Assembly: GCA_035648575.1 (NCBI GenBank)
Contig: DASRLG010000041.1
Span: 1 to 38,049, forward strand
Reading direction: 5' to 3'
Source: Candidatus Dormiibacterota bacterium
GTDB lineage: Bacteria > Patescibacteriota > Saccharimonadia > Saccharimonadales > UBA4665
Length of the DNA stretch: 38,049 nt
Under the pieces are notes generated by a model that searched no databases, had not been told where the DNA came from, and worked only from the letters and a program-made list of their open reading frames with translations. Below are positions 851-38,049 of the stretch, piece by piece. Numbering within the stretch: position 1 is the stretch's first letter; the number at the start of each line of letters is the position of its first letter. The translations under genes were made by a program, and so were the position numbers.

Positions 851-2800
851 TTATACGCTATCACCGCTGCCACTGCCCGGGTACAGCCGATTGCCGAGAT
901 CAATAGTCCCCTGCGGCTGGCTGAAGTCGCCGCCCTCTTCGTTAGCCGCGGCCTCGATGGCCCGCACCTGGTCCGGGTTAGTAGTAATCAGGCCGGTTTC
1001 GGTCGGACTGGCCACGACCTGGATGTGGACGTGGTTCTGTCCGGCGAAGAAAAGGCCCTGTCCGACCGGGAACTGGCTGAGGCGTTTACGCTCCTCGCTG
1101 GTCAGTTTGAAAACATCAGTCAACACGTCGACGGCGGTCGGCGATTGCTTCAGCAGGAACTGCATCGAAGCGTTGGCCACGATGGCCCGGCCCATGCGCG
1201 ACCCCATGAAATCTTCCACGTCTTGGCTGATAGTGGTAATGCCCAGGTTATATTTGCGGGCACGCTTAGCCAGGCTGAACAGGAAGCTGGCTGAATCCTC
1301 GTATTTCATAAGCTGCCAGGCCTCGTCGACGATCAGGATGCGGCGTTTCTGGTCGGTCTTGGTTTTGTTCCAGATGTAGTTGAGCACGATGTACATGGCG
1401 ACCGGCCGCAGCTCGTCTTCCAGGTCGCGCAGGTTGAAAACCACCAAGGGGTTGTTGATATCAACATTACTCTGCTGGGAAAATATCCCGGCGAACGTTC
1501 CGGTAGTGTACTTGCGCAACCGCTGCGCCAGTTGCGGCCCGGTGCCGCCCATGTGCAGCAACGTATCATACAGGTCGACAATCGCCGGCGGCACACCCGT
1601 ATGAGTCAACGGATCATTGGTTATCCCGGCCTTGGCATAAGTCTCGATCAGCGCCGCGTCCAGGTCGGCTTCCTCAGAAGGCGCCAGCGGCGGCCCCATC
1701 GCGGCGGCGTTAGCCCCGGCCATCTGGATCTGGGCGCCGCCCATCATCAGCCTCAGCAGGCCGTGCAGGGTTATAAGGTTGCTCCTCAGGGCGTTGTCGG
1801 CCTCCTCGGAATCAACGACTTTTGGCAGGTCAAACGGGTTGATACGGGTCGAGGAACTCAGGCTGAGCCGCACGTAAGCGCCGCCGACGGCATCGCACAT
1901 CCGCTCGTATTCATTCTCGGGGTCAATGATAAATATTTCAGTACCGAACATCATGCTACGCAAAGCTTCCAGCTTAACCGTGAAGCTCTTACCGGCACCG
2001 GACTTGGCAAAAACCACCGAATTACCGTTTTCCAGAGAGAAACGGTCGAAGATAACCAAACCGGAGTTATGCATGTTGATGCCATACAAAATGCCGGTAT
2101 CCTGACTCAAATCGGCGCTCGTAAACGGAAAGCTGGTACTCAAAGCCCCGGTGCTCATGTTGCGCCGGATCAGCAGCTGGTCGACCAGTTGCGGCACCGT
2201 GCTGTTCAGCCCCTGTTCCTGCTGCGAAGTCGCGGCCTTGCTGTAAACCAGTTGCTGGCCGAGCATCGACTCCACCTTATGGGCAACGAATTCCAGCTCT
2301 TCCATACTGCCGGCGTAGAGCGTGAAATACAGCCCGAACCGGAAGAATCGCTCCTCGCCGACCTGCAGCTTGTCGCGCATTTCTTCGGCGTCCTGGATGG
2401 CCACTTCCTTGCCGGGGTCGCGGACCCGCCCTTTCTCGGCTTCGATCTGGATGCCGGCCTCCAGCTGGGTGACTTTCTTGCGCAGATTCTCCAGCACCAC
2501 CTGGCTCTCGACAGGATAAATATACATGCTCGTATCAATGACCTCGTCGAGGTTAATCATGCTGCTCAGCCAACCGGTATAAAGCTGCCGAGGGTAGCCA
2601 TAAACGTAGTAAGTCCGAGCGTAGCGCGTGCCAAGCTGGAAGTGCGTGTTGCTGAACTCCAGCGAGCTGGGAGCTACGAAATCGCGCAGCGCCGTGATGC
2701 CTTTTTGGAATGCCGCCTGGACTTCCTGCTCTTCGCGGGCGCGCTGGGCCTGGGCCACGGCCACGGGATCCATTGGCGGCTGTTTCTTCCTGCCAAGCAT
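851..2800 (-). CDS. virB4: VirB4/TrbE-family type IV secretion ATPase
   Basis: 649-aa ORF with ATG start. Walker A FAKSGAGKS and Walker B-like RRILIVDEAW are present. The N-terminal block YARTYYVYGYPRQLYTGWL...IDTSMYIYP is typical of Gram-positive-type VirB4 proteins. Antisense ORFs on the plus strand are low-complexity. Confidence 0.9.
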   Translation of the reverse strand: MLGRKKQPPMDPVAVAQAQRAREEQEVQAAFQKGITALRDFVAPSSLEFSNTHFQLGTRYARTYYVYGYPRQLYTGWLSSMINLDEVIDTSMYIYPVESQVVLENLRKKVTQLEAGIQIEAEKGRVRDPGKEVAIQDAEEMRDKLQVGEERFFRFGLYFTLYAGSMEELEFVAHKVESMLGQQLVYSKAATSQQEQGLNSTVPQLVDQLLIRRNMSTGALSTSFPFTSADLSQDTGILYGINMHNSGLVIFDRFSLENGNSVVFAKSGAGKSFTVKLEALRSMMFGTEIFIIDPENEYERMCDAVGGAYVRLSLSSSTRINPFDLPKVVDSEEADNALRSNLITLHGLLRLMMGGAQIQMAGANAAAMGPPLAPSEEADLDAALIETYAKAGITNDPLTHTGVPPAIVDLYDTLLHMGGTGPQLAQRLRKYTTGTFAGIFSQQSNVDINNPLVVFNLRDLEDELRPVAMYIVLNYIWNKTKTDQKRRILIVDEAWQLMKYEDSASFLFSLAKRARKYNLGITTISQDVEDFMGSRMGRAIVANASMQFLLKQSPTAVDVLTDVFKLTSEERKRLSQFPVGQGLFFAGQNHVHIQVVASPTETGLITTNPDQVRAIEAAANEEGGDFSQPQGTIDLGNRLYPGSGSGDSV

Positions 2801-2837
2801 GATCAGCTACTGCCCCCGTTTATCCACCCGAGCCGTC

Positions 2838-3785
2838 TCATTGCAATTCCCTCTGCAAGTGCGCCTGCGGCGCGTTGCCCTCGCCCTTGGTAATGATATC
2901 GGCCGTCAAGTTATTGAAATCCTTAAGCTGCTGCCGGGTGGCGGTATCCGGATTATAGGTATCGTAGTACAGCTCGATCAGTTCCTGGGTATCAAGCGGC
3001 AACCCCTGGATGCTGCACTGCATCAGGCCTGACAAAACTGCCTGCACCCGGTTGCGCAGCTCGGTCTTGGCGTTTTCCAGGTCCGGCTCGTTGATGACGA
3101 CATGCTGGTCTTTTTTGTTAAATAAACCGCCTATGCCCCCCAGGAAGTTTTTGCTCTGGGTCAGTGCCTTTTGGGTATCAACAACCGGGAAAAACGGAAC
3201 CACGACGTAGAATTTTTTATCCATGATGTTAGTCTGCTGGCTAAGGTCACCGATATAGCTGATGTAGTCTTCCATGAGCAGCGCCAACAGCATGTTGTCG
3301 TGCTCGGTACGGATCTTGTCGAGTTTGTTGATGTAAGGCACCAGATCAACTTTCTGCGAGCGCATGAAGATCTGAATCGGAAAATAAAGCGAGTTCAGGA
3401 ACCCCTGGTAGCTATATTCGACAGCTTCCTGCTCCTGGCTGCTCATCAGGTCGAAGTTAATACTTTTGACCATAACTACCGAACGGAAAGAGCCGTCGTT
3501 CATGATAACGATACCGTCGCGAACCTCGGCGATTTGCAAGGAGTTCTGGGTGCTGTTGGGGTGCGGGGCTGGCTTGGGGGCCTTGTCCGCGCCGACCGTA
3601 GGCATATTGAGAGGTGCCGCCGCGTTGGCGCCACCGGGTGCCGTTACGGGGGCGATTGATTGACCTGGTATCAGAGGTGATGGCAAAGGGACGGCATTCG
3701 TCATGTCCGGTACGGGAACAGGAACGGCCGCGGCCGGCTGAGAGGGATTAGGCTGGTTTGGTGTCGTTTGTGTTGACGGATCCAT
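2838..3785 (-). CDS. T4SS-associated protein with a Pro-rich N-terminus and a VirB4-N-terminal-domain-like body, no P-loop
   Basis: ORF 2838..3821; the track start at 3821 is TTG and the first ATG is at 3785 (MDPSTQTT...). The body IAEVRDGIVIMNDGSFRSVVMVKSINFDLMSSQEQEAVEYSYQGFLNSLYFPIQIFMRSQKVDL resembles N-terminal non-ATPase domains of VirB4/TraC-type proteins as I recall them. No Walker A motif is seen. Confidence 0.7.
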   Translation of the reverse strand: MDPSTQTTPNQPNPSQPAAAVPVPVPDMTNAVPLPSPLIPGQSIAPVTAPGGANAAAPLNMPTVGADKAPKPAPHPNSTQNSLQIAEVRDGIVIMNDGSFRSVVMVKSINFDLMSSQEQEAVEYSYQGFLNSLYFPIQIFMRSQKVDLVPYINKLDKIRTEHDNMLLALLMEDYISYIGDLSQQTNIMDKKFYVVVPFFPVVDTQKALTQSKNFLGGIGGLFNKKDQHVVINEPDLENAKTELRNRVQAVLSGLMQCSIQGLPLDTQELIELYYDTYNPDTATRQQLKDFNNLTADIITKGEGNAPQAHLQRELQ

Positions 3786-3843
3786 GGTACGTTCGTTTGC
3801 CCCACCTTTATCTGTGATCAAGTATCACTCTTGCAATAACGAA

Positions 3844-5007
3844 TCAGTGTAATGAAATCATGACCTCGTTGCGCGGCTGGTTTTCGTCACCCCTGTTTTT
3901 GCGGGCCTCGCGAGCCAAAGTCGCCACATCGAAATCATCGTTCTTGGCCAAGGATAGTATAGCAGGATCACTGGTCGCTGTCACCGTATCGTTACTGGCA
4001 GCCGCCGCTGTTTGAGGGTTCGTACCGTCGCTTGGAGCCGGCATCGGAATGTCGGCTGGCGGCGCGGCCGGTTGGCTCCCCAGAGGCTGCAAGGTGCGCA
4101 AATTACCAAACGACACCTGCCGCGAACTGGCCTGCGCCGACAAGCGGGCCGCCAACGCGGCTTCATCCGGTGTTGTCTCACCGGCCACCGGCGCCGGAAT
4201 CGTCGCGCTGGTGACCATCGGTTCCGGTGGGCGCGCCATGGCCGCGGCACCCGTCCCGGCTGGCATTGCCATGGCTGGCGCGGCTGCTGCCTGCCCGTTA
4301 TTCATGAACCAGCTGTCACTTGCCGCTGCCGGCTGCTTAGCCTTAGCCGCCTCGTCCTGCCGGACATCATTAAGCTGGTCGAGCAATTGCTGCCGGCGGT
4401 TCCGGCTGGAACGGTCGATCATAGTATCAAACTGCTGGGCAATAGGGTTATTGGTCTCGTCAAGCATGTCGTCAGCCGCCGGCATATCGTCAGCGGGTAC
4501 GTCCTGGGGCATGCTGCTGATATCGATTAAACGGTCGGAGTTCATGTCGGCTACCACCGGGGAATAAACGCCGCTGCTGGCGTTTTTGGTCGCCCAACCG
4601 CGGCTGTCGATAGTATCGGCCAACGCCCGCAAGCGACTTGTGACTTCCGTCTGGCTAAGCCCGTTGGTCAGTACCCGCTCGACTTTTTTAGGCACGGTTA
4701 TGGTTACCAGTTCCTTAACGCCGCTCTGGTTCCAGATCCGCTGCCGCGGCTTAAACCAGAACCTTAACTTAGCCAACGCCCAGGTCTCCGTCGGCTGGTC
4801 CCGCCCGAACGGAAAGGCAAAAAACGCGCAGAACAACGCCGGCGGCAAAAACAGCACCAGCAAAAACGCGGCGTTCTTAGTCACCAAAATAAAACATATA
4901 TAGAACAGGAACACGGCCACCAAGGCGAAAATAAACTGCCTCAACGTCAACGGCCCCAGGATTTTGTCCTCGGCCTCGATATCCTGAATCAGTTTGTATG
5001 TTGCCAC
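3844..5007 (-). CDS. PrgI/TcpE/VirB3-like small-membrane-domain T4SS protein with a long disordered Ala/Pro-rich C-terminus
   Basis: The N-terminus YKLIQDIEAEDKILGPLTLRQFIFALVAVFLFYICFILV...LLVLFLPPALFCAFFAF has the LT.RQ motif followed by two TM helices, as in the PrgI family. It lies immediately upstream of the VirB4-type genes. Confidence 0.65.
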   Translation of the reverse strand: MATYKLIQDIEAEDKILGPLTLRQFIFALVAVFLFYICFILVTKNAAFLLVLFLPPALFCAFFAFPFGRDQPTETWALAKLRFWFKPRQRIWNQSGVKELVTITVPKKVERVLTNGLSQTEVTSRLRALADTIDSRGWATKNASSGVYSPVVADMNSDRLIDISSMPQDVPADDMPAADDMLDETNNPIAQQFDTMIDRSSRNRRQQLLDQLNDVRQDEAAKAKQPAAASDSWFMNNGQAAAAPAMAMPAGTGAAAMARPPEPMVTSATIPAPVAGETTPDEAALAARLSAQASSRQVSFGNLRTLQPLGSQPAAPPADIPMPAPSDGTNPQTAAAASNDTVTATSDPAILSLAKNDDFDVATLAREARKNRGDENQPRNEVMISLH

Positions 5008-5051
5008 AATACCTTAAGTATAACAAACCACAACCGGATAAGGCACAGGTC

Positions 5052-6812
5052 TTACGGGCCTGTCGAACGAGCACGCTGGAGGTTCAGGCCGATGGCCACG
5101 AAGTCCTTCTTACCAAGCTGGTGTCCTGGCGTACCGGCAGTAACGGTTTGCAGGATATCCACGATCTCTTTCTTAGCAAAATCCGGTACGTTTAGGGCGT
5201 TGAAAGCGTCCCAATCAAACGAGTATGTATCCGGTGTCTCCTGAACGATGTCATTGCCCTTTTTATCATGGCCCAGGATCTTTCCACCGGGTTTAGTGAT
5301 CACCAGCACCGTATCAGCTGTTCGGCGACCGAGCAGGTCGTTAACAATCATAGCTTGAACACGCCGTGCTTCCACATGGTCATTGTCGAAAGGATTACCG
5401 ACTTTGACACCGAAATCATCATATCGCTGGAAATCATCGGCCAATTCACTAGGGTGCTTAGCTAAGTAGCGCTGTTCTGCTAATTGCCAAAGTATCAGGC
5501 CGAGGCTCGCGTCTTCTACATCCTGCCTAAGGCCAAAGCCCTTCAAAGCCTCGGTGTATTCGTAGGTCATACGGCTAGCCATGTCAATTACGGCGGTTTT
5601 GCCTAACTCGGCAACCATTTCCTGTAAGGATGCCACGTACTTTTCCAGGAATTGTTCGCCCTGGAGCCTGATCCGGTCGGCAACTACCTGATGGTCCCTG
5701 TAAATATCGTCGAGCGTGAATATATCCTCATAAGCCAGGAGAGCAACAGCCTCTTCCCTAGACAGTGAATTTTCAGTGGGGTCATGTTCCTCGCCGACAG
5801 TGTCCGGTCCGGCGGTCCAGCCTTCACGGCCCGGGGCCGGTGCCAGCATGAAGCTGGTACTGACCCGGCCGATGCTTGATAACACGGCTGGGTCAGGCTG
5901 TTCATCTGGCATTTCCAGGTGCAGGTCGCTCAACGCCTTGCCCATAGTATTAAGGTGCTTCTTCAGGCCGTCATCCCTATAGACGCGCTGGTGAGTGGCA
6001 TCGCCAGCGGCATTGTAGGTCTTGACTACGAAAGTTCGCACCGGGTGCTTATCGCCTTCAGGGCCTTCCATCAGTAGGACTTCTTCGGTCACGCGCTGGA
6101 CGCTGCCGTTAACTTTCCACGTAACGCCTTTCAGACCCAGGCCCAATCGTTCCTGGTGTTCCATGACAGTATCGAAGACTGACTTGTCGGGGTCGACACG
6201 TTCGATAGGCCTTACGTTGGGGTTGTTCCGTCTAATCCGTTCCGGAGCGTCCTGCCAACCGAAATCGGTGAACCACTCAAAGGGCGTGAATTCGTCACTC
6301 GGATGGTCAAGCCAGCCTGCCAGCGCGTCATCTTCATAACCTATAACGTCAGCCAACTCTCCATCTGGAGGAGTTACTTTGACTGTCCAGCGCCGTCCCG
6401 TGCCAGGTGTTAGAACGGTTTCCTTTTGCTCTGCGCGGCCTACGTAAGGGCCACCTCTTAATGTACTTCTAGCTCGGGGGCGCCACTTACCGGTCGGCTT
6501 GTCTTCCCTATTCGTTACGTGGTAGGCATCGTAATCGGTAAATTCATATAATTGGCCGTTGCGGTCGCGTAGCCAGAAGCCCCTTAGGTCAGGCCGGTTG
6601 TGGGCTTCGCCGTTCTCCATGACCTGTTCGGAGATTAATCTCAAGGGGTCAAATTCCCGGCGCAGCATCGAGGGCCCTATTTCCATACCCATGGTCGCGG
6701 TGGCCGGTGCTGCGGCACCGAGCTCCACTGTCGGAGGCAGGCCAACAGGTACGACTGCCGTGGTCGGGTCGGCGGCTGGTTCTGGTCGGAGTGCTAGTTC
6801 TTCTGAGGCCAT
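5052..6812 (-). CDS. Hypothetical soluble acidic protein (586 aa) embedded in the T4SS-like operon
   Basis: Long ORF with ATG start and natural amino-acid composition. I recognise no signal peptide, TM segment, P-loop or HExxH motif. It is preceded by a 156-bp AT-rich spacer carrying a consensus promoter. Confidence 0.8.
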   Translation of the reverse strand: MASEELALRPEPAADPTTAVVPVGLPPTVELGAAAPATATMGMEIGPSMLRREFDPLRLISEQVMENGEAHNRPDLRGFWLRDRNGQLYEFTDYDAYHVTNREDKPTGKWRPRARSTLRGGPYVGRAEQKETVLTPGTGRRWTVKVTPPDGELADVIGYEDDALAGWLDHPSDEFTPFEWFTDFGWQDAPERIRRNNPNVRPIERVDPDKSVFDTVMEHQERLGLGLKGVTWKVNGSVQRVTEEVLLMEGPEGDKHPVRTFVVKTYNAAGDATHQRVYRDDGLKKHLNTMGKALSDLHLEMPDEQPDPAVLSSIGRVSTSFMLAPAPGREGWTAGPDTVGEEHDPTENSLSREEAVALLAYEDIFTLDDIYRDHQVVADRIRLQGEQFLEKYVASLQEMVAELGKTAVIDMASRMTYEYTEALKGFGLRQDVEDASLGLILWQLAEQRYLAKHPSELADDFQRYDDFGVKVGNPFDNDHVEARRVQAMIVNDLLGRRTADTVLVITKPGGKILGHDKKGNDIVQETPDTYSFDWDAFNALNVPDFAKKEIVDILQTVTAGTPGHQLGKKDFVAIGLNLQRARSTGP

Positions 6813-6846
6813 GATAAGAGTTTTTGTTTATTTGTTATCAATATAG

Positions 6847-6875
6847 ATTATAGCTGATAATTCTAATATTGTCAA
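6847..6875 (-). promoter_or_regulatory. Sigma-70-type promoter, perfect consensus TTGACA-17-TATAAT (minus strand)
   Basis: The minus strand reads TTGACA (complement of 6870-6875), a 17-nt spacer, then TATAAT (complement of 6847-6852). It lies 34 nt upstream of the ATG at 6812. Confidence 0.55.
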
Positions 6876-6968
6876 CTATGTAGCTTGATAATTAAACAGG
6901 AGAGAAGAAGAACAGGTAGTTTATTCCGTGGGAGTGTCGAATTCGATAACTTATAGGTTTAGTTAGGT

Positions 6969-9900
6969 TTAGTGATTACGGGCGGCTTCGTCGGCGGCTT
7001 TCTGCGCTTCCGCGGCATCTTGCTGCTGCCTGGCCTGTTCGCGCGGGTCGTAATCTCTTGGTTTAGGCAGGGGTACGCCTTCTTTGCGGAGCTCTTCGGA
7101 CATGTCGCTCCATTCGGCCTTGGCGCCAGTGTCGTTGTAGCCGTAAGGACCGGCCTGGTTGACGATAAGGTCCTGCATGGCGCGGGCTGCGCCGGTGTAG
7201 TTGCCTTGATCGTCTTTCTCTCTGGCGATATCCATGTTGGTGAGACGGGCCGACTGTACGGCTTCGGCCTTGGCACCGGTCCAGTCGGAGGCCTTGATGC
7301 TCATAGCGTTGGACCTCGCGGCTCCCTTGCGCTTCTGGCGCTGGGCCGCGGTTAGATTAGAATTGTCGTCAAAGACAGAGTAGAACTTGCCCTTGGTGCC
7401 GGTGGCCGATCCGTCTTTGTCCACCATGACGCCATGTCCCCACCTGGTTTCCGGCCGCAGGCGGGCGCCGGCGTCGGAAGCTTTCTTGACGACGCTCTGG
7501 GCGTAGGAGGCGCCGCCGCCCTTGCCCTTGCGCGCGGTTATGGAGTTGCCGATTTCCGCCAGGTCCTGTTGTTCGGCGCGGCCGGCGTTGGCTAGGCCGA
7601 GGGCACCCATCGTCTGGACGTCGGCCCGGAACAGCTCGGGGTTGTTGCTTATATTGGCCAGGGTACCGCGAGCGGTGTGAAGGCCGGCGGCGGCCAGTTG
7701 CTCTTTTTCCCTGCCGCTGCTGCCGAGGATCTCGGTTATCTTATCGATGTCTTTCAGGGACCTTGGCGCTCTTGATACGCCTGTCTCTCTGTCTATGAAG
7801 CCTTCGTCCATAAGTTGCTTCTGGGTCTCCTCGCTGAAGCCGCGGTATGAACCGGATAACGCGCGCCAGCCTTCGTAATGCATGCCGCCCTTGGATTCTA
7901 TTTCTTGCCAGCCCTTGGTGCTGTGGTCGATCATGGCGTCGTCGATTTTGTTTTCTATGCCGGCCGCGAAACGCTTGAAGCCGGGCGTGCCCTTTTGGCC
8001 AAGCTTGCCCGGAACCATTTCGTCGGCGTCGAAGGCCCATTCAGCCAGCCGGCTGCCCATTCGGCCGACACTCCTGCCATTCTTGCCGAAGCGGCCGAAC
8101 TCGGGGTTCCAAAGGTAGCCGGCGCGGGCGCGCTGGACGCGGCCGGCAGTGTGCTCTTTGCGCTTCTTGCTCAGGTAGCCATAACCGCCTTGGGCGCGGC
8201 TATTGACCAGGTTGGCCATACCGCCCAGCGCCCCGCCGGCAAACTTGAAAGTCATAGGAATCATTAAATAGGGCGCGAAGTAGGCGATGAAGCCGATTAT
8301 TTGGCTCAGTATGTCGGAACTCTGGTTGACGGCGATAGCCGAAAATACGCGGCCAATGGCTATGAAGCCGGCGATCAGGGGGAACATGAACAAGGCTTTG
8401 CTGAAATTTTCCCACCAGAACTTAAAAGCCCTTTGGAAATAAGGATTAGGCAATATGTAAGCGGCAATCCCTAGGGGCGACAGTATGGTCAGGCCAATGA
8501 CGACGAGAGCTCTCAAGATCAGTGTCGCGAAGCCGACTACAACCGCCAGGGCGGCCATACCGACGAAAGTCAATAAGCCGAACACCCCCATGGCAACCCC
8601 GACGATCGAGGGGATTAGTACCGCGGCGCTTTGGGAGAGGCTAAGGTGGATGCTGGTATTGATACCGATGAAGGGCGCTTCTATCAGGCGCCTTATGCCA
8701 AACCCCAGGTCGTTTGTAAGCGTTATGAAAAACCTCATTAACTGCCAGGACATAGCTATAGCAATCGATGCTATCAGAAGTCGCGGCAGGACTTTACGAA
8801 TAGTATAAGCGTCCAGCATTTCCAGGCCCAAAGCCTGGGCTATCAGGACTAATATGGTTGCCAGTGCTATCAGGCCGAGTGCTATATCCCGGAAATACCC
8901 CCAAGCCGTATGGTAAGCGTCACATTGGCCGCCGGTACCGCAAGAGCCGTCAGGATTGGCAAAGATCTGGTCGGGATTATCAGAATTACCGTTGGTACCC
9001 ACCGACAATTCGCTGTTAATCGCGCCGTCCAGGGCGCTGACTATGCCTACGAGTCCCTTTACGATGCCGCAGACCAGCCAATTAAGCGGGTTAAGCCCGG
9101 CATGACAGTTTAATGACAGGTCTTGGCTAGAGCTGCCGCCCCCGCCACCGCCAACACCGCTACTGCCTGCCGCCTCGTCACTGGCCAGCTTGCCGTCGGC
9201 ACCTTTGGTGTCAGCCAGTTGAATCAGTATGCCGTCGCTCTCATAACAACCCTGCCCGTCACTATGGAGCGAAGCGCCGGTAATAATGGACGGGAAGCCG
9301 GTTGATAAGGGGTTGTCGCTTGAACTGTTCTTTATGACCAGCGTCCCGCTGGTGGGCCAGCCCGAAGCGCCGCTAATTTGGCTTTGGCAGGTTTTGTTAT
9401 AGCTTCTGCCTTTGGCAGCCATATAGGGGCCGCTGCCAGCGGTGTTTTGCGTAAAGACAATAGCCGTCTGGTCCGAAGTACTTATAGTGCCGCTATCCTG
9501 CCAGACGAAGTAATAATTGAATCCGGCCGGGTCGGAATTAGGACTCAGGGTTATTGGATCATCGGTTTCTACGCAATTATTATTGCCGCCGCCCGGCGTG
9601 GTGAATAGATGGATAGTAGCCGAAGCCGTAGCGTTTTGGTAATTGGAGCCGTCGGAGTTAGGGAAGCCGTTTATATAGTTCTTCGCCGAGCAGCTATCGC
9701 TGGAGTTTTGAAGCACGAAGCTCAGGTTATTGTCTTCCTTATTATCATAATAAACGCTACTGCCGACGCTGATGTGGCTATGGTCGATCCACTGGCCTAT
9801 CTGGGGGGACTGCTTGCCGGTTATGGTTATAGAGCCGTAATCTTTTGAGATCCCGCCGATATCGCTGCCGCAATCCGACTTTATGTCCGCGCTGGAGGAG

Positions 9901-10202
9901 CCGTCTTGGCCGTCACTCGTGAAGATGTATATGTCCGGGCAAAGGTTGCCGTTAGGTCCGTTGGTACCGTTACCGCTGAAATACACGCCCGTCGGATACT
10001 TCTTGAGGTCCACCCCGTTTTTGGTGAAGGTCAGGGTACTGTTTTGGTCGGCCGGGTCGGGGCCGACAACCGATTTGTTGCCGTTCGTGTAACGGTAAGT
10101 TCCATTGTCGGCTGAAGTTTTGCCGGGCAGCAGTGACAAGAACAGGACCATCACCAAGGGCAGAGCCATCCACCATATTTTTTTGCCGCTTAAATATTTC
10201 AT
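6969..10202 (-). CDS. VirB6/TrbL-like polytopic T4SS channel protein with a large extracellular N-domain and a large cytoplasmic C-domain (1077 aa)
   Basis: Signal peptide MKYLSGKKIWWMALPLVMVLFLSLLPGKTSA. About 400 aa of Ser/Gly/Asn/Asp-rich sequence with scattered Cys and a poly-Gly linker follows. Then come multiple TM helices (LIALATILVLIAQALG, LLIASIAIAMSWQLMRFFITL, AAVLIPSIVGVAMGVFGLLTFVGMAALAVVVGFATLIL and others). The C-terminus is a roughly 430-aa charged tail. Confidence 0.7.
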   Translation of the reverse strand: MKYLSGKKIWWMALPLVMVLFLSLLPGKTSADNGTYRYTNGNKSVVGPDPADQNSTLTFTKNGVDLKKYPTGVYFSGNGTNGPNGNLCPDIYIFTSDGQDGSSSADIKSDCGSDIGGISKDYGSITITGKQSPQIGQWIDHSHISVGSSVYYDNKEDNNLSFVLQNSSDSCSAKNYINGFPNSDGSNYQNATASATIHLFTTPGGGNNNCVETDDPITLSPNSDPAGFNYYFVWQDSGTISTSDQTAIVFTQNTAGSGPYMAAKGRSYNKTCQSQISGASGWPTSGTLVIKNSSSDNPLSTGFPSIITGASLHSDGQGCYESDGILIQLADTKGADGKLASDEAAGSSGVGGGGGGSSSQDLSLNCHAGLNPLNWLVCGIVKGLVGIVSALDGAINSELSVGTNGNSDNPDQIFANPDGSCGTGGQCDAYHTAWGYFRDIALGLIALATILVLIAQALGLEMLDAYTIRKVLPRLLIASIAIAMSWQLMRFFITLTNDLGFGIRRLIEAPFIGINTSIHLSLSQSAAVLIPSIVGVAMGVFGLLTFVGMAALAVVVGFATLILRALVVIGLTILSPLGIAAYILPNPYFQRAFKFWWENFSKALFMFPLIAGFIAIGRVFSAIAVNQSSDILSQIIGFIAYFAPYLMIPMTFKFAGGALGGMANLVNSRAQGGYGYLSKKRKEHTAGRVQRARAGYLWNPEFGRFGKNGRSVGRMGSRLAEWAFDADEMVPGKLGQKGTPGFKRFAAGIENKIDDAMIDHSTKGWQEIESKGGMHYEGWRALSGSYRGFSEETQKQLMDEGFIDRETGVSRAPRSLKDIDKITEILGSSGREKEQLAAAGLHTARGTLANISNNPELFRADVQTMGALGLANAGRAEQQDLAEIGNSITARKGKGGGASYAQSVVKKASDAGARLRPETRWGHGVMVDKDGSATGTKGKFYSVFDDNSNLTAAQRQKRKGAARSNAMSIKASDWTGAKAEAVQSARLTNMDIAREKDDQGNYTGAARAMQDLIVNQAGPYGYNDTGAKAEWSDMSEELRKEGVPLPKPRDYDPREQARQQQDAAEAQKAADEAARNH

Positions 10203-10352
10203 AGTCTAGCGGGGAGCAGCTCTATGTATTTTTGTAAACCACCGGGAACGTTTTTGTAGTCAGGCATAGTACGCTTGAAGTTATATTGCTTTAAATATAG
10301 CACATATAAAGGATTAGCGTTATCAAGAAGCCTGCCCATCCCTATCGCATGC

Positions 10353-10381
10353 TTGTCAATAGGTAACTTAAGCACTATAGT
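10353..10381 (+). promoter_or_regulatory. Candidate promoter TTGTCA-17-TATAGT for the pilin array
   Basis: TTGTCA at 10353-10358, a 17-nt spacer, TATAGT at 10376-10381. The ATG at 10391 is only 9 nt downstream and no SD is visible. Confidence 0.4.
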
Positions 10382-10390
10382 TATATAAAA

Positions 10391-11191
10391 ATGAACATTA
10401 CAACACACAAAGCTAAAAAGATAACTAAGAGGATCAGCCGATTTCTGTTCTGTTTCCTGACGGCGGCATTTGTTTTAGCGCCATCGGTAGCCTTGGCCGC
10501 GTCACAGGTTTACGGCATAGCCTGTGCCACCAGCGATGTTAAGGTCAGTAAACATTCAGCGGACTGTTCGGCCGCAGCAGATACCTTAAGACTGTATGAG
10601 ATAGGAAACAAAAGCCCACGCAAGCCCTATCCCACAGGCTATGGCATAACCGTGGTAACGGTAGACTGCGGTAAAAGCAGTCCGACTACACCCCTGTTAA
10701 ACGGGCCGGTTAAGTTTGCCTGCAAGAAATCATCAATAAAACCCACGCTCAAAGGCGCCACCATAATCCAACATGCCGCCGCGGTATCAGGCTCGGGCAG
10801 CCTGGGCGGCCAGGTTACCTGTGATCCGACGACCGATGCCACCTGCCCGGTCTGCCAAAGCAGCAACCCGCCGGCCGGTTGTGTCGATTGCGGCAGCGGT
10901 ACCTGTTCGGACCCCGCGGCTAACCCCAATACTCCTTGCGACACTAACGGCTGCGATTTAATCGGCAAGTATATCGACCCGTTCATTAATTTGTTCTCGG
11001 TGACTTTCGGTTTTATAGCCGTAGCCTCTATTATTATGGGAGGGATACAATACGCGTCCTCGACTGGCGACCCGCAAAAAGTCACGGCGGCCAAACAACG
11101 AATTACCAATACTCTGATTGCCCTGGTAGCTTACTTCTTCCTTTATGGTTTCCTGCAATTCCTGATACCGGGGGGAGCATTTAACGGATGA
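10391..11191 (+). CDS. VirB2/TrbC-like T4SS pilin paralog 1 with a long Cys-rich N-terminal extension (266 aa)
   Basis: N-terminal signal/TM segment. About 14 Cys lie in the mature region. The C-terminal pilin module is FGFIAVASIIMGGIQYASSTGDPQKVTAAKQRITNTLIALVAYFFLYGF, i.e. two TM helices flanking a G..Y.S.GD loop. Confidence 0.8.
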   Translation: MNITTHKAKKITKRISRFLFCFLTAAFVLAPSVALAASQVYGIACATSDVKVSKHSADCSAAADTLRLYEIGNKSPRKPYPTGYGITVVTVDCGKSSPTTPLLNGPVKFACKKSSIKPTLKGATIIQHAAAVSGSGSLGGQVTCDPTTDATCPVCQSSNPPAGCVDCGSGTCSDPAANPNTPCDTNGCDLIGKYIDPFINLFSVTFGFIAVASIIMGGIQYASSTGDPQKVTAAKQRITNTLIALVAYFFLYGFLQFLIPGGAFNG

Positions 11192-19140: not shown

Positions 19141-19217
19141 TGGTACACCCGGCAGGATTCGAACCTACGACCTTTGGCTCCGCAAGCCAACGCTCTATCC
19201 AGCTGAGCTACGGGTGC
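19141..19217 (-). tRNA. tRNA-Arg (anticodon GCG), CCA encoded
   Basis: The reverse complement is GCACCCG-TA-GCTC-AGCTGGATA-GAGC-G-TTGGC-TTGCGGA-GCCAA-AGGTC-GTAGG-TTCGAAT-CCTGC-CGGGTGT-A-CCA. It closely parallels the E. coli tRNA-Arg scaffold but has G34 instead of A34. Confidence 0.85.
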
Positions 19218-36932: not shown

Positions 36933-37604
36933 ATGAGTACCTGGCGGTTACCCCGCACACAGTTTATTCTCGCTTTGGGAGCTTCGACGCTGGTTAGCGT
37001 CGGTTTGTTCGGCTATGGAGCTTGGCGTAACAGCAGCCTGGATTATGATTATCTGGTTTGGAACCTGTTTCTGGCCTGGTTACCGCTGATTTTCGCTGTG
37101 CGCTTGGTCGCCCTGTTAAGGCGCAAACTCTGGTCCAGCTGGGAGGCGCTGGCAGTCAGCACGTTGTGGCTGGTCTTCCTGCCCAACAGTTTTTATATGA
37201 TTAGTGATTTCATTCATCTGCAAGAGGTGCAGAGGGTGGATATACTTTATGATGCCGTGATGTTCACGTCGTTTATATATACCGGCGTGGTGCTTGGTTT
37301 TAGCAGCCTGTACTTGATTCATATCCAGTTGAGGCGGCGTTTGTCAGTTACCGGAGCGACTTTCTGGATTGCCGCTACGCTCTTGGTTTGCAGCGCGGCG
37401 GTTTACGTCGGGCGTGACCTGCGCTGGAACAGCTGGGACCTGTTGACCAACCCGGGCGGCCTGCTGTTTGACGTATCGGACCGTTTGCAGCATCCGGCGG
37501 CCTATCCGCAAATGATATCCACGGTCGTCACTTTTTTCATCCTTTTGGCCAGCATGTACAGTCTGCTGTGGCGTGGTTCTCGGCTGCTCCGACAGGCGCA
37601 CTGA
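36933..37604 (+). CDS. DUF1361-family integral membrane protein
   Basis: WNLFLAWLPLIFA and LPNSFYMISDFIHL blocks with six hydrophobic helices. TATAAT at 36918-36923 lies 9 nt upstream of the ATG. Confidence 0.75.
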   Translation: MSTWRLPRTQFILALGASTLVSVGLFGYGAWRNSSLDYDYLVWNLFLAWLPLIFAVRLVALLRRKLWSSWEALAVSTLWLVFLPNSFYMISDFIHLQEVQRVDILYDAVMFTSFIYTGVVLGFSSLYLIHIQLRRRLSVTGATFWIAATLLVCSAAVYVGRDLRWNSWDLLTNPGGLLFDVSDRLQHPAAYPQMISTVVTFFILLASMYSLLWRGSRLLRQAH

Positions 37605-37642
37605 ATATTGCGCCAGGAGCGAAGTTATAGTATCGTATAGCT

Positions 37643-37717
37643 ATGTCTTCATTAGTTACATCGGTTGCAGCCATCCGCCGCCGCTCGCGTACCATCGGGA
37701 GTTGCCCTTGTAATTAG
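37643..37717 (+). CDS. Candidate arginine-codon leader peptide (24 aa)
   Basis: ATG TCT TCA TTA GTT ACA TCG GTT GCA GCC ATC CGC CGC CGC TCG CGT ACC ATC GGG AGT TGC CCT TGT AAT TAG translates to MSSLVTSVAAIRRRSRTIGSCPCN. Four Arg codons fall at 37676-37690. The ORF overlaps the 5' arm of an antiterminator helix. Confidence 0.45.
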   Translation: MSSLVTSVAAIRRRSRTIGSCPCN

Positions 37718-37747
37718 TGCGTAAAATAAGGTTCCACGGCAGCTCCC
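37697..37747 (+). promoter_or_regulatory. Candidate antiterminator helix (GGGAGUUGCC / GGCAGCUCCC)
   Basis: 37697-37706 pairs with 37738-37747 over 10 bp (one G-U). The 3' arm contains the 5' arm of the downstream terminator. Confidence 0.45.
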
Positions 37748-37762
37748 AACAGGGAGCTTTTT
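37741..37762 (+). terminator. Intrinsic terminator/attenuator directly upstream of argH
   Basis: AGCTCCC-AACA-GGGAGCT followed by TTTT. It lies 22 nt upstream of the argH ATG and before its SD (GAGAGGAA). Confidence 0.6.
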
Positions 37763-37784
37763 AATTAAATGAGAGGAATATGAG

Positions 37785-38049
37785 ATGAACAAATTATGGC
37801 AAGAAGATAACGCGGCAACATTGAATCCATTGGTCGAGGCCTACACGGTTGGCGATGACTACCGTCAGGACCAGCAACTGCTTGGTTACGACATTCGGGC
37901 CAGTAAGGCGCACGCTGCCATGCTGCAGTCCATCGGTGTTCTAAGCAGTGAGGAGCTAGTGGAGCTACAAACTGCCCTAGACGAACTTTTACAGATCTGG
38001 ACTGATGGTAAATTCGTGATTGAACAACACCAGGAAGACGGCCATACGG
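37785..38049 (+). CDS. argH: Argininosuccinate lyase-like (fumarate lyase superfamily), 5' part only
   Basis: MNKLWQEDNAATLNPLVEAYTVGDDYRQDQQLLGYDIRASKAHAAMLQSIGVLSSEELVELQTAL...EDGHT follows the ArgH N-terminal pattern: KLW..., D.rL..yDI.gS.AH..mL...G.l...E, then ED.H. It runs off the right edge. Confidence 0.7.
   Translation, partial: MNKLWQEDNAATLNPLVEAYTVGDDYRQDQQLLGYDIRASKAHAAMLQSIGVLSSEELVELQTALDELLQIWTDGKFVIEQHQEDGHT

Follow-up and report, generated by a model that had tools for sequence, protein, structure and literature searches.

The last part of the 38,049-nucleotide (nt) stretch of DNA analysed here (the window), as seen from a direct reading of 37300-38049 and from the listing of its open reading frames (ORFs), carries on the plus strand a DUF1361 gene, a 24-codon ORF with a run of arginine codons, and argH, which encodes argininosuccinate lyase and is cut by the window end. 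The intergenic element formed around this short ORF is about 120 nt long and is considered here as a putative leader-peptide transcription attenuator of arginine biosynthesis. The parent contig (L001, from a soil metagenome in ENA), which was recovered via the DUF1361 protein, extends the window and gives the gene order argH (398 amino acids, aa), argF, then carB-carA on the opposite strand, and then argC, argJ and argD; the gene that the leader precedes is therefore the first of an arginine-biosynthesis cluster. The nearest ArgH proteins with a named source are mostly labelled Saccharimonadia, Saccharibacteria or Patescibacteria, and one partial entry, P0039, which is 100% identical, is labelled Candidatus Dormibacteraeota. 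The features of the element and of its expected trans-acting partner are as follows:

37608-37613, plus strand: -35-like hexamer TTGCGC of a putative promoter (sequence read), with TTGC-type hexamers at the same spacing in relatives
37631-37636, plus strand: -10-like hexamer TATCGT, ending 6 nt before the leader ATG, at a conserved position
37643-37717, plus strand: leader-peptide ORF of 24 codons and TAG, encoding MSSLVTSVAAIRRRSRTIGSCPCN (sequence read and ORF listing)
37676-37690, plus strand: putative regulatory arginine-codon cluster CGC CGC CGC TCG CGT, 4 Arg in 5 codons
37680-37689, plus strand: region 1 (GCCGCUCGCG), 5' arm of the predicted anti-antiterminator helix 1:2 (RNAalifold consensus)
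37696-37706, plus strand: region 2 (C-GGGAGUUGCC), predicted to pair with region 1 or region 3, and 5' arm of the antiterminator (consensus fold and pair counts)
37715-37717, plus strand: leader stop codon TAG, inside a conserved UAAUUAG motif (sequence read)
37738-37747, plus strand: region 3 (GGCAGCUCCC), 3' arm of the antiterminator and 5' arm of the terminator (pair counts)
37741-37762, plus strand: predicted intrinsic terminator, AGCUCCC, loop AACA, GGGAGCU (region 4, 37752-37758) and U tract (terminator scan)
37771-37778, plus strand: Shine-Dalgarno (SD) sequence of argH, GAGAGGAA (sequence read), kept in the related loci L083 and L086
37785-38049, plus strand: argH, ATG at 37785, putative regulated gene
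19141-19217, minus strand: tRNA-Arg(GCG), expected reader of the CGC/CGU leader codons (ARAGORN; anticodon loop UUGCGGA)

Several of these parts had been claimed in an initial annotation made from the letters alone, and they are found where it placed them: the 24-codon ORF, which ends 67 nt upstream of argH on the same strand; its four arginine codons in five; the 10-bp complementarity between GGGAGTTGCC (37697-37706) and GGCAGCTCCC (37738-37747), one pair of which is G-U; the terminator, which was recovered independently by a terminator scan; the TTGCGC-17-TATCGT element ending 6 nt before the ATG; and the tRNA-Arg(GCG). To these is added a third helix that the initial annotation lacked, in which 37680-37689 (GCxGCUCGCG, spanning from the second Arg codon to the Ser-Arg pair) pairs with CGGGAGUUGC (37696-37705) and which thus overlaps the regulatory arginine codons. 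With helix 1:2 the layout becomes the complete four-region arrangement of the trp type, 1:2, 2:3 and 3:4, the window energies of which are -11.1 (1:2), -16.7 (2:3) and -12.0 kcal/mol (terminator, a G+C-rich stem of 7 bp followed by a U tract). RNAalifold applied to nine homologues (alignment A3) returned helix 1:2 plus the terminator as the consensus structure. A further helix 'A' of the single-sequence minimum free energy (MFE) structure (37651-37661 with 37709-37720) was absent from this consensus and was dropped.

The arginine codons of the leader are CGC and CGU only. CGC is also the commonest arginine codon of the window genes (34%; arginine accounts for 4.6% of their codons), and a tRNA-Arg with the anticodon GCG would decode precisely CGC and CGU, unlike the usual bacterial tRNA-Arg with its inosine-bearing ACG anticodon. 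The tRNA-Arg(GCG) encoded at 19141-19217 may be the sensed isoacceptor. The UAAUUAG motif, located at or just after the leader stop (window 37709-37717; L103 1161-1170; L115 about 1150-1160), is common to leader families with otherwise unrelated helices and provides stop codons in two frames (UAA and UAG); it could form a fail-safe stop for frameshifted hungry ribosomes or, alternatively, a polymerase pause site.

The region immediately upstream of the ORF has a distinctive organization. The spacer between TTGCGC and TATCGT is 17 nt, and a TATAGT at 37626-37631 overlaps the latter hexamer. Among 13 Saccharibacteria-type leaders, 10 have a TAnnnT box (TATCGT, TATCAT, TATGGT, TATAGT or TAGTAT) the end of which lies 6-7 nt upstream of the start codon; in L092 the distance is 10 nt, and in L114 and L115 no clear box stands at this spacing; in most leaders a TTGnnn hexamer is found 17 nt further upstream. 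An SD sequence was sought before the ORFs of these 13 leaders and none was found. Of the earlier proposal that the leader transcript is leaderless, the conserved position of the -10-like box and the lack of an SD sequence stand, and together they suggest a leaderless leader mRNA; the transcription start itself is placed from these features.

Related argH loci come from two sources, exact-protein look-ups and an unbiased scan in which metagenomes were searched with the N-terminus of ArgH. A profile scan of genome-collection contigs with the ArgH alignment, the motifs of which are generic, yielded, among the matches listed, mostly Bacteroidota and four useful Saccharibacteria loci. A leader of the main type was found in eight further distinct sequences besides the window, and a covariance model built from A3 (9 sequences) was used to find additional copies in the collected loci, all of which adjoin the first arginine gene on its upstream side. 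The contexts of the leaders are:

L083, L086, L090, L091: DUF1361, leader, argH
L092: leader, argH, in another context with an upstream gene not identified
L088: carA divergent; leader, argH-argJ-argB-argD
L157: leader, argG-argH
L158: leader, ADI-family gene, argG-argH
L013: leader with peptide MKISNFTILQNRRSTRMSGDCS, an ORF of ~500 bp, argH
L109: leader with peptide MNFFKLDTVVFRRS, argG-argH
L115 and L114: leader with peptide MLYIKKLTNQVRRNNLSCGRRLV, that of L114 coming from a scan for short ORFs
L003-5 and L095-L107 ('Candidatus Saccharibacteria' metagenome-assembled genomes, MAGs): leader with peptide MTYRHNFVIVARRRRSDSEG, upstream of argG-argH

Thus the predicted leader stays with whichever gene opens the arginine operon, regardless of the upstream neighbour, and by the evidence of these alignments and folds the element is conserved in several lineages of Saccharibacteria and in several sequence families with different gene orders. 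In the L013 locus an exact direct repeat of 2861 nt (72-2932 and 4310-7170) flanks argH, which might be an assembly artefact or a very recent duplication; since both of its leader copies lie in this repeat they were counted once.

Peptides of the main family follow the pattern [IVN]-R-R-x-S-R-[TI]-x-G-S-C-P-[CS], with ten N-terminal residues that are not conserved; that of L158 is one residue longer (RRRSYR). The peptides of the MTYRHNFVIVARRRRSDSEG group contain four Arg codons in a row, and their individual matches to the covariance model are weak (E about 0.02-0.4). At least two consecutive Arg codons occur at nt 31-45 of every Saccharibacteria-type leader examined (nt 31-36 in L114), including those of families whose helices are unrelated to each other, the divergent families keeping in-frame runs such as RRRR, RR and RR..RR. 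The frame containing the arginine codons is open in 19 of the 19 leaders examined, and the other two frames nearly always contain stops. The first ~33 nt of the leaders vary freely with the frame always remaining open, and the indels in the 5' coding part of the alignment come in multiples of three (3-nt gaps). The helices themselves are replaced rather than preserved between families: in the L103 group, for instance, helix 1:2 is CUCUGA/UCAGAG, helix 2:3 is GAGGGCU/AGCCCUC and the terminator is AGAGCC..GGCUCU followed by Us. All three are nevertheless present in every family, at -7 to -19 kcal/mol each, and, counted from the start codon, region 1 begins at nt 35-42 throughout and region 2 at nt 51-56. 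A codon-sensing attenuator would be expected to retain the Arg run, the frame and the geometry while its helices and the remainder of its peptide change, which a conserved arrest peptide or a ligand-binding RNA would not.

Pair counts were made on the nine sequences of A3 and on the 11 of A5 (A3 plus L013 and L109); the covariance-model alignment A4 misaligned the L103 group and L115, and those families were treated separately with no counts taken from it. In the nine sequences helix 2:3 is 100% paired, and one of its pairs, C-G, is changed on both sides to U-A in three of them. In the 11 sequences it is 97.3% paired, with compensatory double changes in 4 of its 10 pairs, a result matched by 0 of 500 shuffles, though this figure is not a probability because the sequences are related. 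Slid controls for the same helix are 28-54% paired with 0-1 double changes. The covariation of helix 1:2 is weaker: it is 97.5% (9 sequences) and 94.9% (11 sequences) paired and has two pairs with double changes, a value reached by 10-15 of 500 shuffles, to be read with the same caution. The terminator 3:4 is 100% paired in the nine sequences. Alignment of related argH upstream regions, which had been proposed as a check on the element, hence recovers the conserved arginine run, the conserved helices and a covarying antiterminator.

The geometry of a translating ribosome on this RNA was explored in silico, assuming a footprint from -15 to +12 around the first nt of the A-site codon, a value taken from general knowledge of ribosome footprints and toeprints, and folding the nascent transcript of 13 leaders up to the terminator loop with the footprint masked. 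When a ribosome occupies any of the first three CGC codons, region 1 is hidden and region 2 remains accessible, whereas one with UAG in its A site masks ~37700-37729, i.e. most of region 2, but not region 3. Placing the second Arg codon in the A site makes the 2:3 helix the nascent MFE structure of all 13 leaders; if the stop codon is placed there instead, 2:3 is lost or cut to a few terminal pairs in most of the 13. When the full-length sequence is folded at equilibrium with the ribosome mask, the switch is seen in L083, L086, L090, L157 and L115. The attenuation geometry first proposed for the window thus gains support from conserved elements, from antiterminator covariation and from these folds, in all 13 of which the stalled ribosome gives the antiterminator.

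Taken together, these observations make it probable, in our judgement with considerable confidence, that the argH-argF operon of a Saccharibacteria bacterium of the Candidate Phyla Radiation (CPR) is controlled by the element as a ribosome-mediated leader-peptide transcription attenuator, with arginyl-tRNA as the signal sensed. As far as its sequence and predicted structure go, the leader has every structural feature of leader-peptide attenuators that was examined, here with a predicted specificity for arginine and in a CPR bacterium. From these features we infer where transcription starts, that the ORF is translated, that ribosomes stall in it, that transcription terminates and that arginine sets the outcome. 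Transcription would start at or within a few nt of the leader AUG to give a leaderless mRNA, and a ribosome would translate the 24-codon leader while RNA polymerase proceeds. If Arg-tRNA is scarce, the ribosome would stall with an early CGC codon (37676-37684) in the A site and cover region 1; region 2 (37696-37706) could then pair with region 3 (37738-37747), the 5' arm of the terminator would be sequestered and argH would be transcribed. If Arg-tRNA is plentiful, the ribosome would reach the UAG (37715-37717) and cover most of region 2, leaving region 3 to pair with region 4 (37752-37758) so that transcription would end at the U tract near 37762. On RNA that is not being translated, helix 1:2 would form first, and then the terminator; read-through transcripts from DUF1361, for example, would carry an untranslatable leader and would therefore be terminated.

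Several points weigh against this interpretation. The promoter hexamers of the window agree only weakly with the sigma-70 consensus (3/6 and 4/6), which is why no promoter was reported by the scan; we know of no demonstration of leaderless translation in Saccharibacteria; the L088 homologue would need a 5' GUG start; and all the organisms concerned are uncultured. Arginine codons are kept next to each other in relatives, yet the pattern is mostly R-R-x-S-R, that is two adjacent Arg codons plus one more, rather than the four in five of the window. The MFE z-score of 37640-37790 is -0.80, i.e. not unusually stable, and taken by itself the window sequence is not beyond chance; it is because the element is conserved and covarying in relatives that it can be regarded as such. 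The 11 sequences used for the pair counts are not phylogenetically independent and the shuffles ignore relatedness, whereas the slid controls retain it and still fall far below the observed values for 2:3. The suggested check by folding of alternative structures came out only in part: they are seen in the nascent folds, but at full-length equilibrium the window sequence keeps its terminator even with a ribosome on the Arg codons, so that the switch must be kinetic, as it is in the trp operon. In addition, the nascent MFE in the absence of a ribosome prefers 2:3 over 1:2 in most leaders, and termination on untranslated RNA would therefore depend on the order of folding. Stalling at the CGU at 37688, the final Arg codon, would place the first 4 nt of region 2 under the ribosome. 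Lastly, the leader is absent upstream of argH in L160 and L161, the ArgH proteins of which are 74-75% identical. In L160 (3380-3500; the region in L161 being 3070-3300) repeated palindromes of the TTCTAGAAT type are found in place of the leader, and these are possibly the operator of a DNA-binding protein. The lack of a leader in these two loci, together with the palindromes of L160, suggests turnover of the regulatory mechanism.

Of the other explanations, the one that survives best, though we regard it as unlikely, is that the RNA switch is real and its ORF is untranslated, the element being a riboswitch, a T-box-like element or an attenuator governed by an RNA-binding protein, with the Arg codons incidental to a G+C-rich helix. 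Part of the arginine segment does lie within helix 1:2, and pairing could account for some of its conservation. RNA-only sensing of arginine genes may also occur in CPR bacteria, as hinted by a Microgenomates MAG in which the sequence immediately before argH gives a weak, full-length match to the T-box (L029 2410-2593; 21 bits vs a gathering score of 93, E = 0.012), an element that may represent a tRNA-sensing alternative to the leader peptide. Against a purely RNA-based switch, no Rfam family, the T-box included, matches the leader at E <= 10; upstream of 1:2 there is no conserved structured domain, just ~33 freely varying nt, in which the frame stays open and indels are of 3 nt; conservation extends to the first Arg codon or codons, which are not part of helix 1:2; the in-frame Arg run is kept in families with unrelated helices; and the start codon stands at a fixed distance from the -10-like box.

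We consider it still less likely that the leader acts through an arrest peptide like the fungal arginine attenuator peptide (AAP), SpeFL or TnaC, whereby the ribosome would be stalled by a nascent chain of the form ..RRxSRxxGSCPC together with free arginine and not by hungry Arg codons. The C-terminal GSCPC(N) of the main family is invariant and nucleotide changes in it are synonymous, as might be expected of such a peptide; however, GGGAGUUGCC, which encodes GSC, is also region 2, and changes in it are compensated in region 3, so that the conservation of GSC is explained by RNA pairing. Moreover, divergent leaders end quite differently (SDSEG, a stop right after RRS, NNLSCGRRLV or STRMSGDCS) while keeping the Arg run, and between leader families the peptide outside that run is not conserved, unlike what would be looked for in an arrest sensor. 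A stall induced by arginine at the Arg run would also have the wrong sign, switching biosynthesis on at high arginine, although a stall at the stop codon, as in AAP, would give the right one. The least probable reading, that an ordinary terminator of DUF1361 happens to follow a chance Arg-rich short ORF with no regulation involved, can draw on the fact that such ORFs are not rare (10 of 423 short ORFs in the window have at least 4 Arg in 5 codons) and on the unremarkable fold z-score, and is in our view largely refuted by the sequence comparisons: the unit is kept where no co-directional gene precedes it (L088, divergent from carA) and before different first genes (argG, ADI-family gene), contexts the variety of which means that it is not a mere DUF1361 terminator, a promoter-like element separates the DUF1361 stop codon from the leader ORF, and helix 2:3 covaries.

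The attenuator proposed here can be placed against the classical leader-peptide systems of the enterobacterial amino-acid operons, namely trpL, hisL, leuL, thrL, ilvL/ivbL and pheL. To our knowledge arginine is absent from that list, and arginine biosynthesis is the textbook case of control by a repressor, ArgR. Like the classical attenuators, the leader combines a short ORF bearing a cluster of codons for the end product with the four regions that form 1:2, 2:3 (antiterminator) and 3:4 (intrinsic terminator), and its stop codon lies between regions 2 and 3, so that a terminating ribosome would mask region 2. It differs from them in sensing arginine, in its CPR/Saccharibacteria host, in an ORF that has no SD sequence and apparently lies at the 5' end of the transcript, and in having no sequence relationship to any Rfam leader family. 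In line with this, cmscan of 37400-38049 against Rfam gave no matches at E <= 10, and no Rfam leader family or T-box (RF00230) was found at the gathering score in 19 related loci. ArgR and AhrC, acting at ARG boxes, likewise place arginine biosynthetic genes under feedback control, but as DNA-binding proteins; searching with the E. coli ARG-box consensus alone (WNTGAATWWWWATTCANW, at most 3 mismatches) revealed no such site near argH, and the three matches elsewhere in the window equal the chance expectation. The T-box (RF00230) resembles the leader in sensing the aminoacylation of a specific tRNA and in operating a terminator/antiterminator switch upstream of amino-acid genes; it differs in binding the tRNA directly and in its length of ~220 nt, as against a translating ribosome and ~120 nt with no T-box match here. 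In some Firmicutes, T-boxes specific for Arg have been predicted ahead of arginine genes. More generally, the same genes can switch between T-box and leader-peptide sensing across lineages (Naville and Gautheret, PMC2965389), and the weak T-box-like match before argH in L029 hints that this pattern might apply here too.

Closer parallels come from leaderless short ORFs of other phyla and from an arginine-sensing leader with a different output. Fourteen leaderless leader-peptide attenuators have been predicted in Deinococcus deserti (PMC4007540), and an arginine example could not be confirmed among them. In mycobacteria, leaderless poly-Cys short ORFs are described as constituting a cysteine-responsive attenuator of operonic gene expression (bioRxiv 10.1101/834739). 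In both accounts these ORFs, like the present leader, begin at the transcription start site, lack an SD sequence and are enriched in pathway-related codons, and they belong to phyla other than that of Saccharibacteria. In the leader of Salmonella speF, orf34, a ribosome that pauses at a pair of adjacent Arg codons when arginine is low determines which of the alternative mRNA structures is formed (PMC6386406). The orf34 leader differs in controlling ornithine decarboxylase, and thus polyamine synthesis, rather than arginine biosynthesis, and in an output by Rho termination, access to the ribosome-binding site or RNase G decay, rather than by an intrinsic terminator/antiterminator pair. In the full-text literature, within an incomplete coverage that makes this no more than absence of evidence, no description of a leader-peptide attenuator for arginine biosynthesis was found.

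Whether the element has a wider significance is more finely balanced. We would put it at about even chances that Arg-codon leaders on leaderless transcripts form an unrecognised and widespread class, serving as the main arginine feedback control of Saccharibacteria in place of ArgR-type repression, and that they have arisen or spread repeatedly elsewhere with different helices. The collected loci were scanned for short ORFs that have at least two adjacent Arg codons and are followed by a terminator, a procedure that recovered the known leaders and turned up four further candidates directly upstream of argG or argH:

L008 1591-1730: unclassified MAG, peptide MLNTRRNNRQERRRPNHLEGHR, with a convincing predicted 2:3 helix
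L018 1516-1680: KSB1 genome, peptide ..NNRRRS.., weak
L021 2866-2985 and 5683-5805: MAG labelled Gammaproteobacteria, two paralogous leaders, ..AARRTSGEG.. and ..SLRRTFGEG.., weak

The leaders of L008, L018 and L021 are candidates, to be taken as leads only. The KSB1 locus also contains, further upstream, a cobalamin riboswitch (L018 507-690; 100 bits), which is unrelated to the leader.

If Arg-codon leaders do form such a class, this would be, as far as we could find, the first amino-acid-sensing cis-regulatory mechanism to be defined in CPR bacteria. Proof that a whole lineage of ultra-small CPR bacteria relies on ribosome stalling at Arg codons in place of ArgR would bring a new amino-acid specificity to the classical mechanism. 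It would also offer a first handle on gene regulation in organisms with very few transcription factors, and would be indirect evidence for leaderless translation and for the coupling of transcription and translation in Saccharibacteria. As the element is small and self-contained it could be studied in vitro or in a heterologous host despite the uncultured state of these organisms, and the covariance model built here could serve to annotate arginine regulons in metagenomes.

Some further observations concern the arginine genes of the window and of the related loci. A 3-codon ORF, ATG AGA TGA (window 37780-37788), overlaps the argH start codon (ATGAGATGAAC); the overlap sequence is identical in L083, and L086 has GAGAGGAATGAGATATGAGT there. 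The ArgH of the window clade is a short form of ~398 aa, and its next-closest relatives, among the matches listed from the genome collection, belong to other CPR bacteria, to archaea and mostly to Bacteroidota. In some relatives the arginyl-tRNA synthetase gene argS comes directly after argH (e.g. L162 4730-6403), and in L158 the arginine operon under the leader includes a gene of the ADI/amidinotransferase family (738-1727). Upstream of argG in a Gracilibacteria MAG (L007 1150-1400) there are four irregularly spaced copies of GGTGAGATTCCCCTTG. The L013 locus, from a Saccharibacteria MAG, additionally has a match to the c-di-GMP-II riboswitch above the gathering score at 40-123. Elsewhere in the window are genes resembling those of type IV secretion systems (T4SS) and genes for ValRS, TsaD, a Mur ligase, GroEL and PGI/PMI. 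The type IV secretion-like cluster occupies 851-11191 and comprises a TraG P-loop ATPase, a PrgI-family protein and a T4SS pilin, along with several large ORFs without a Pfam match.

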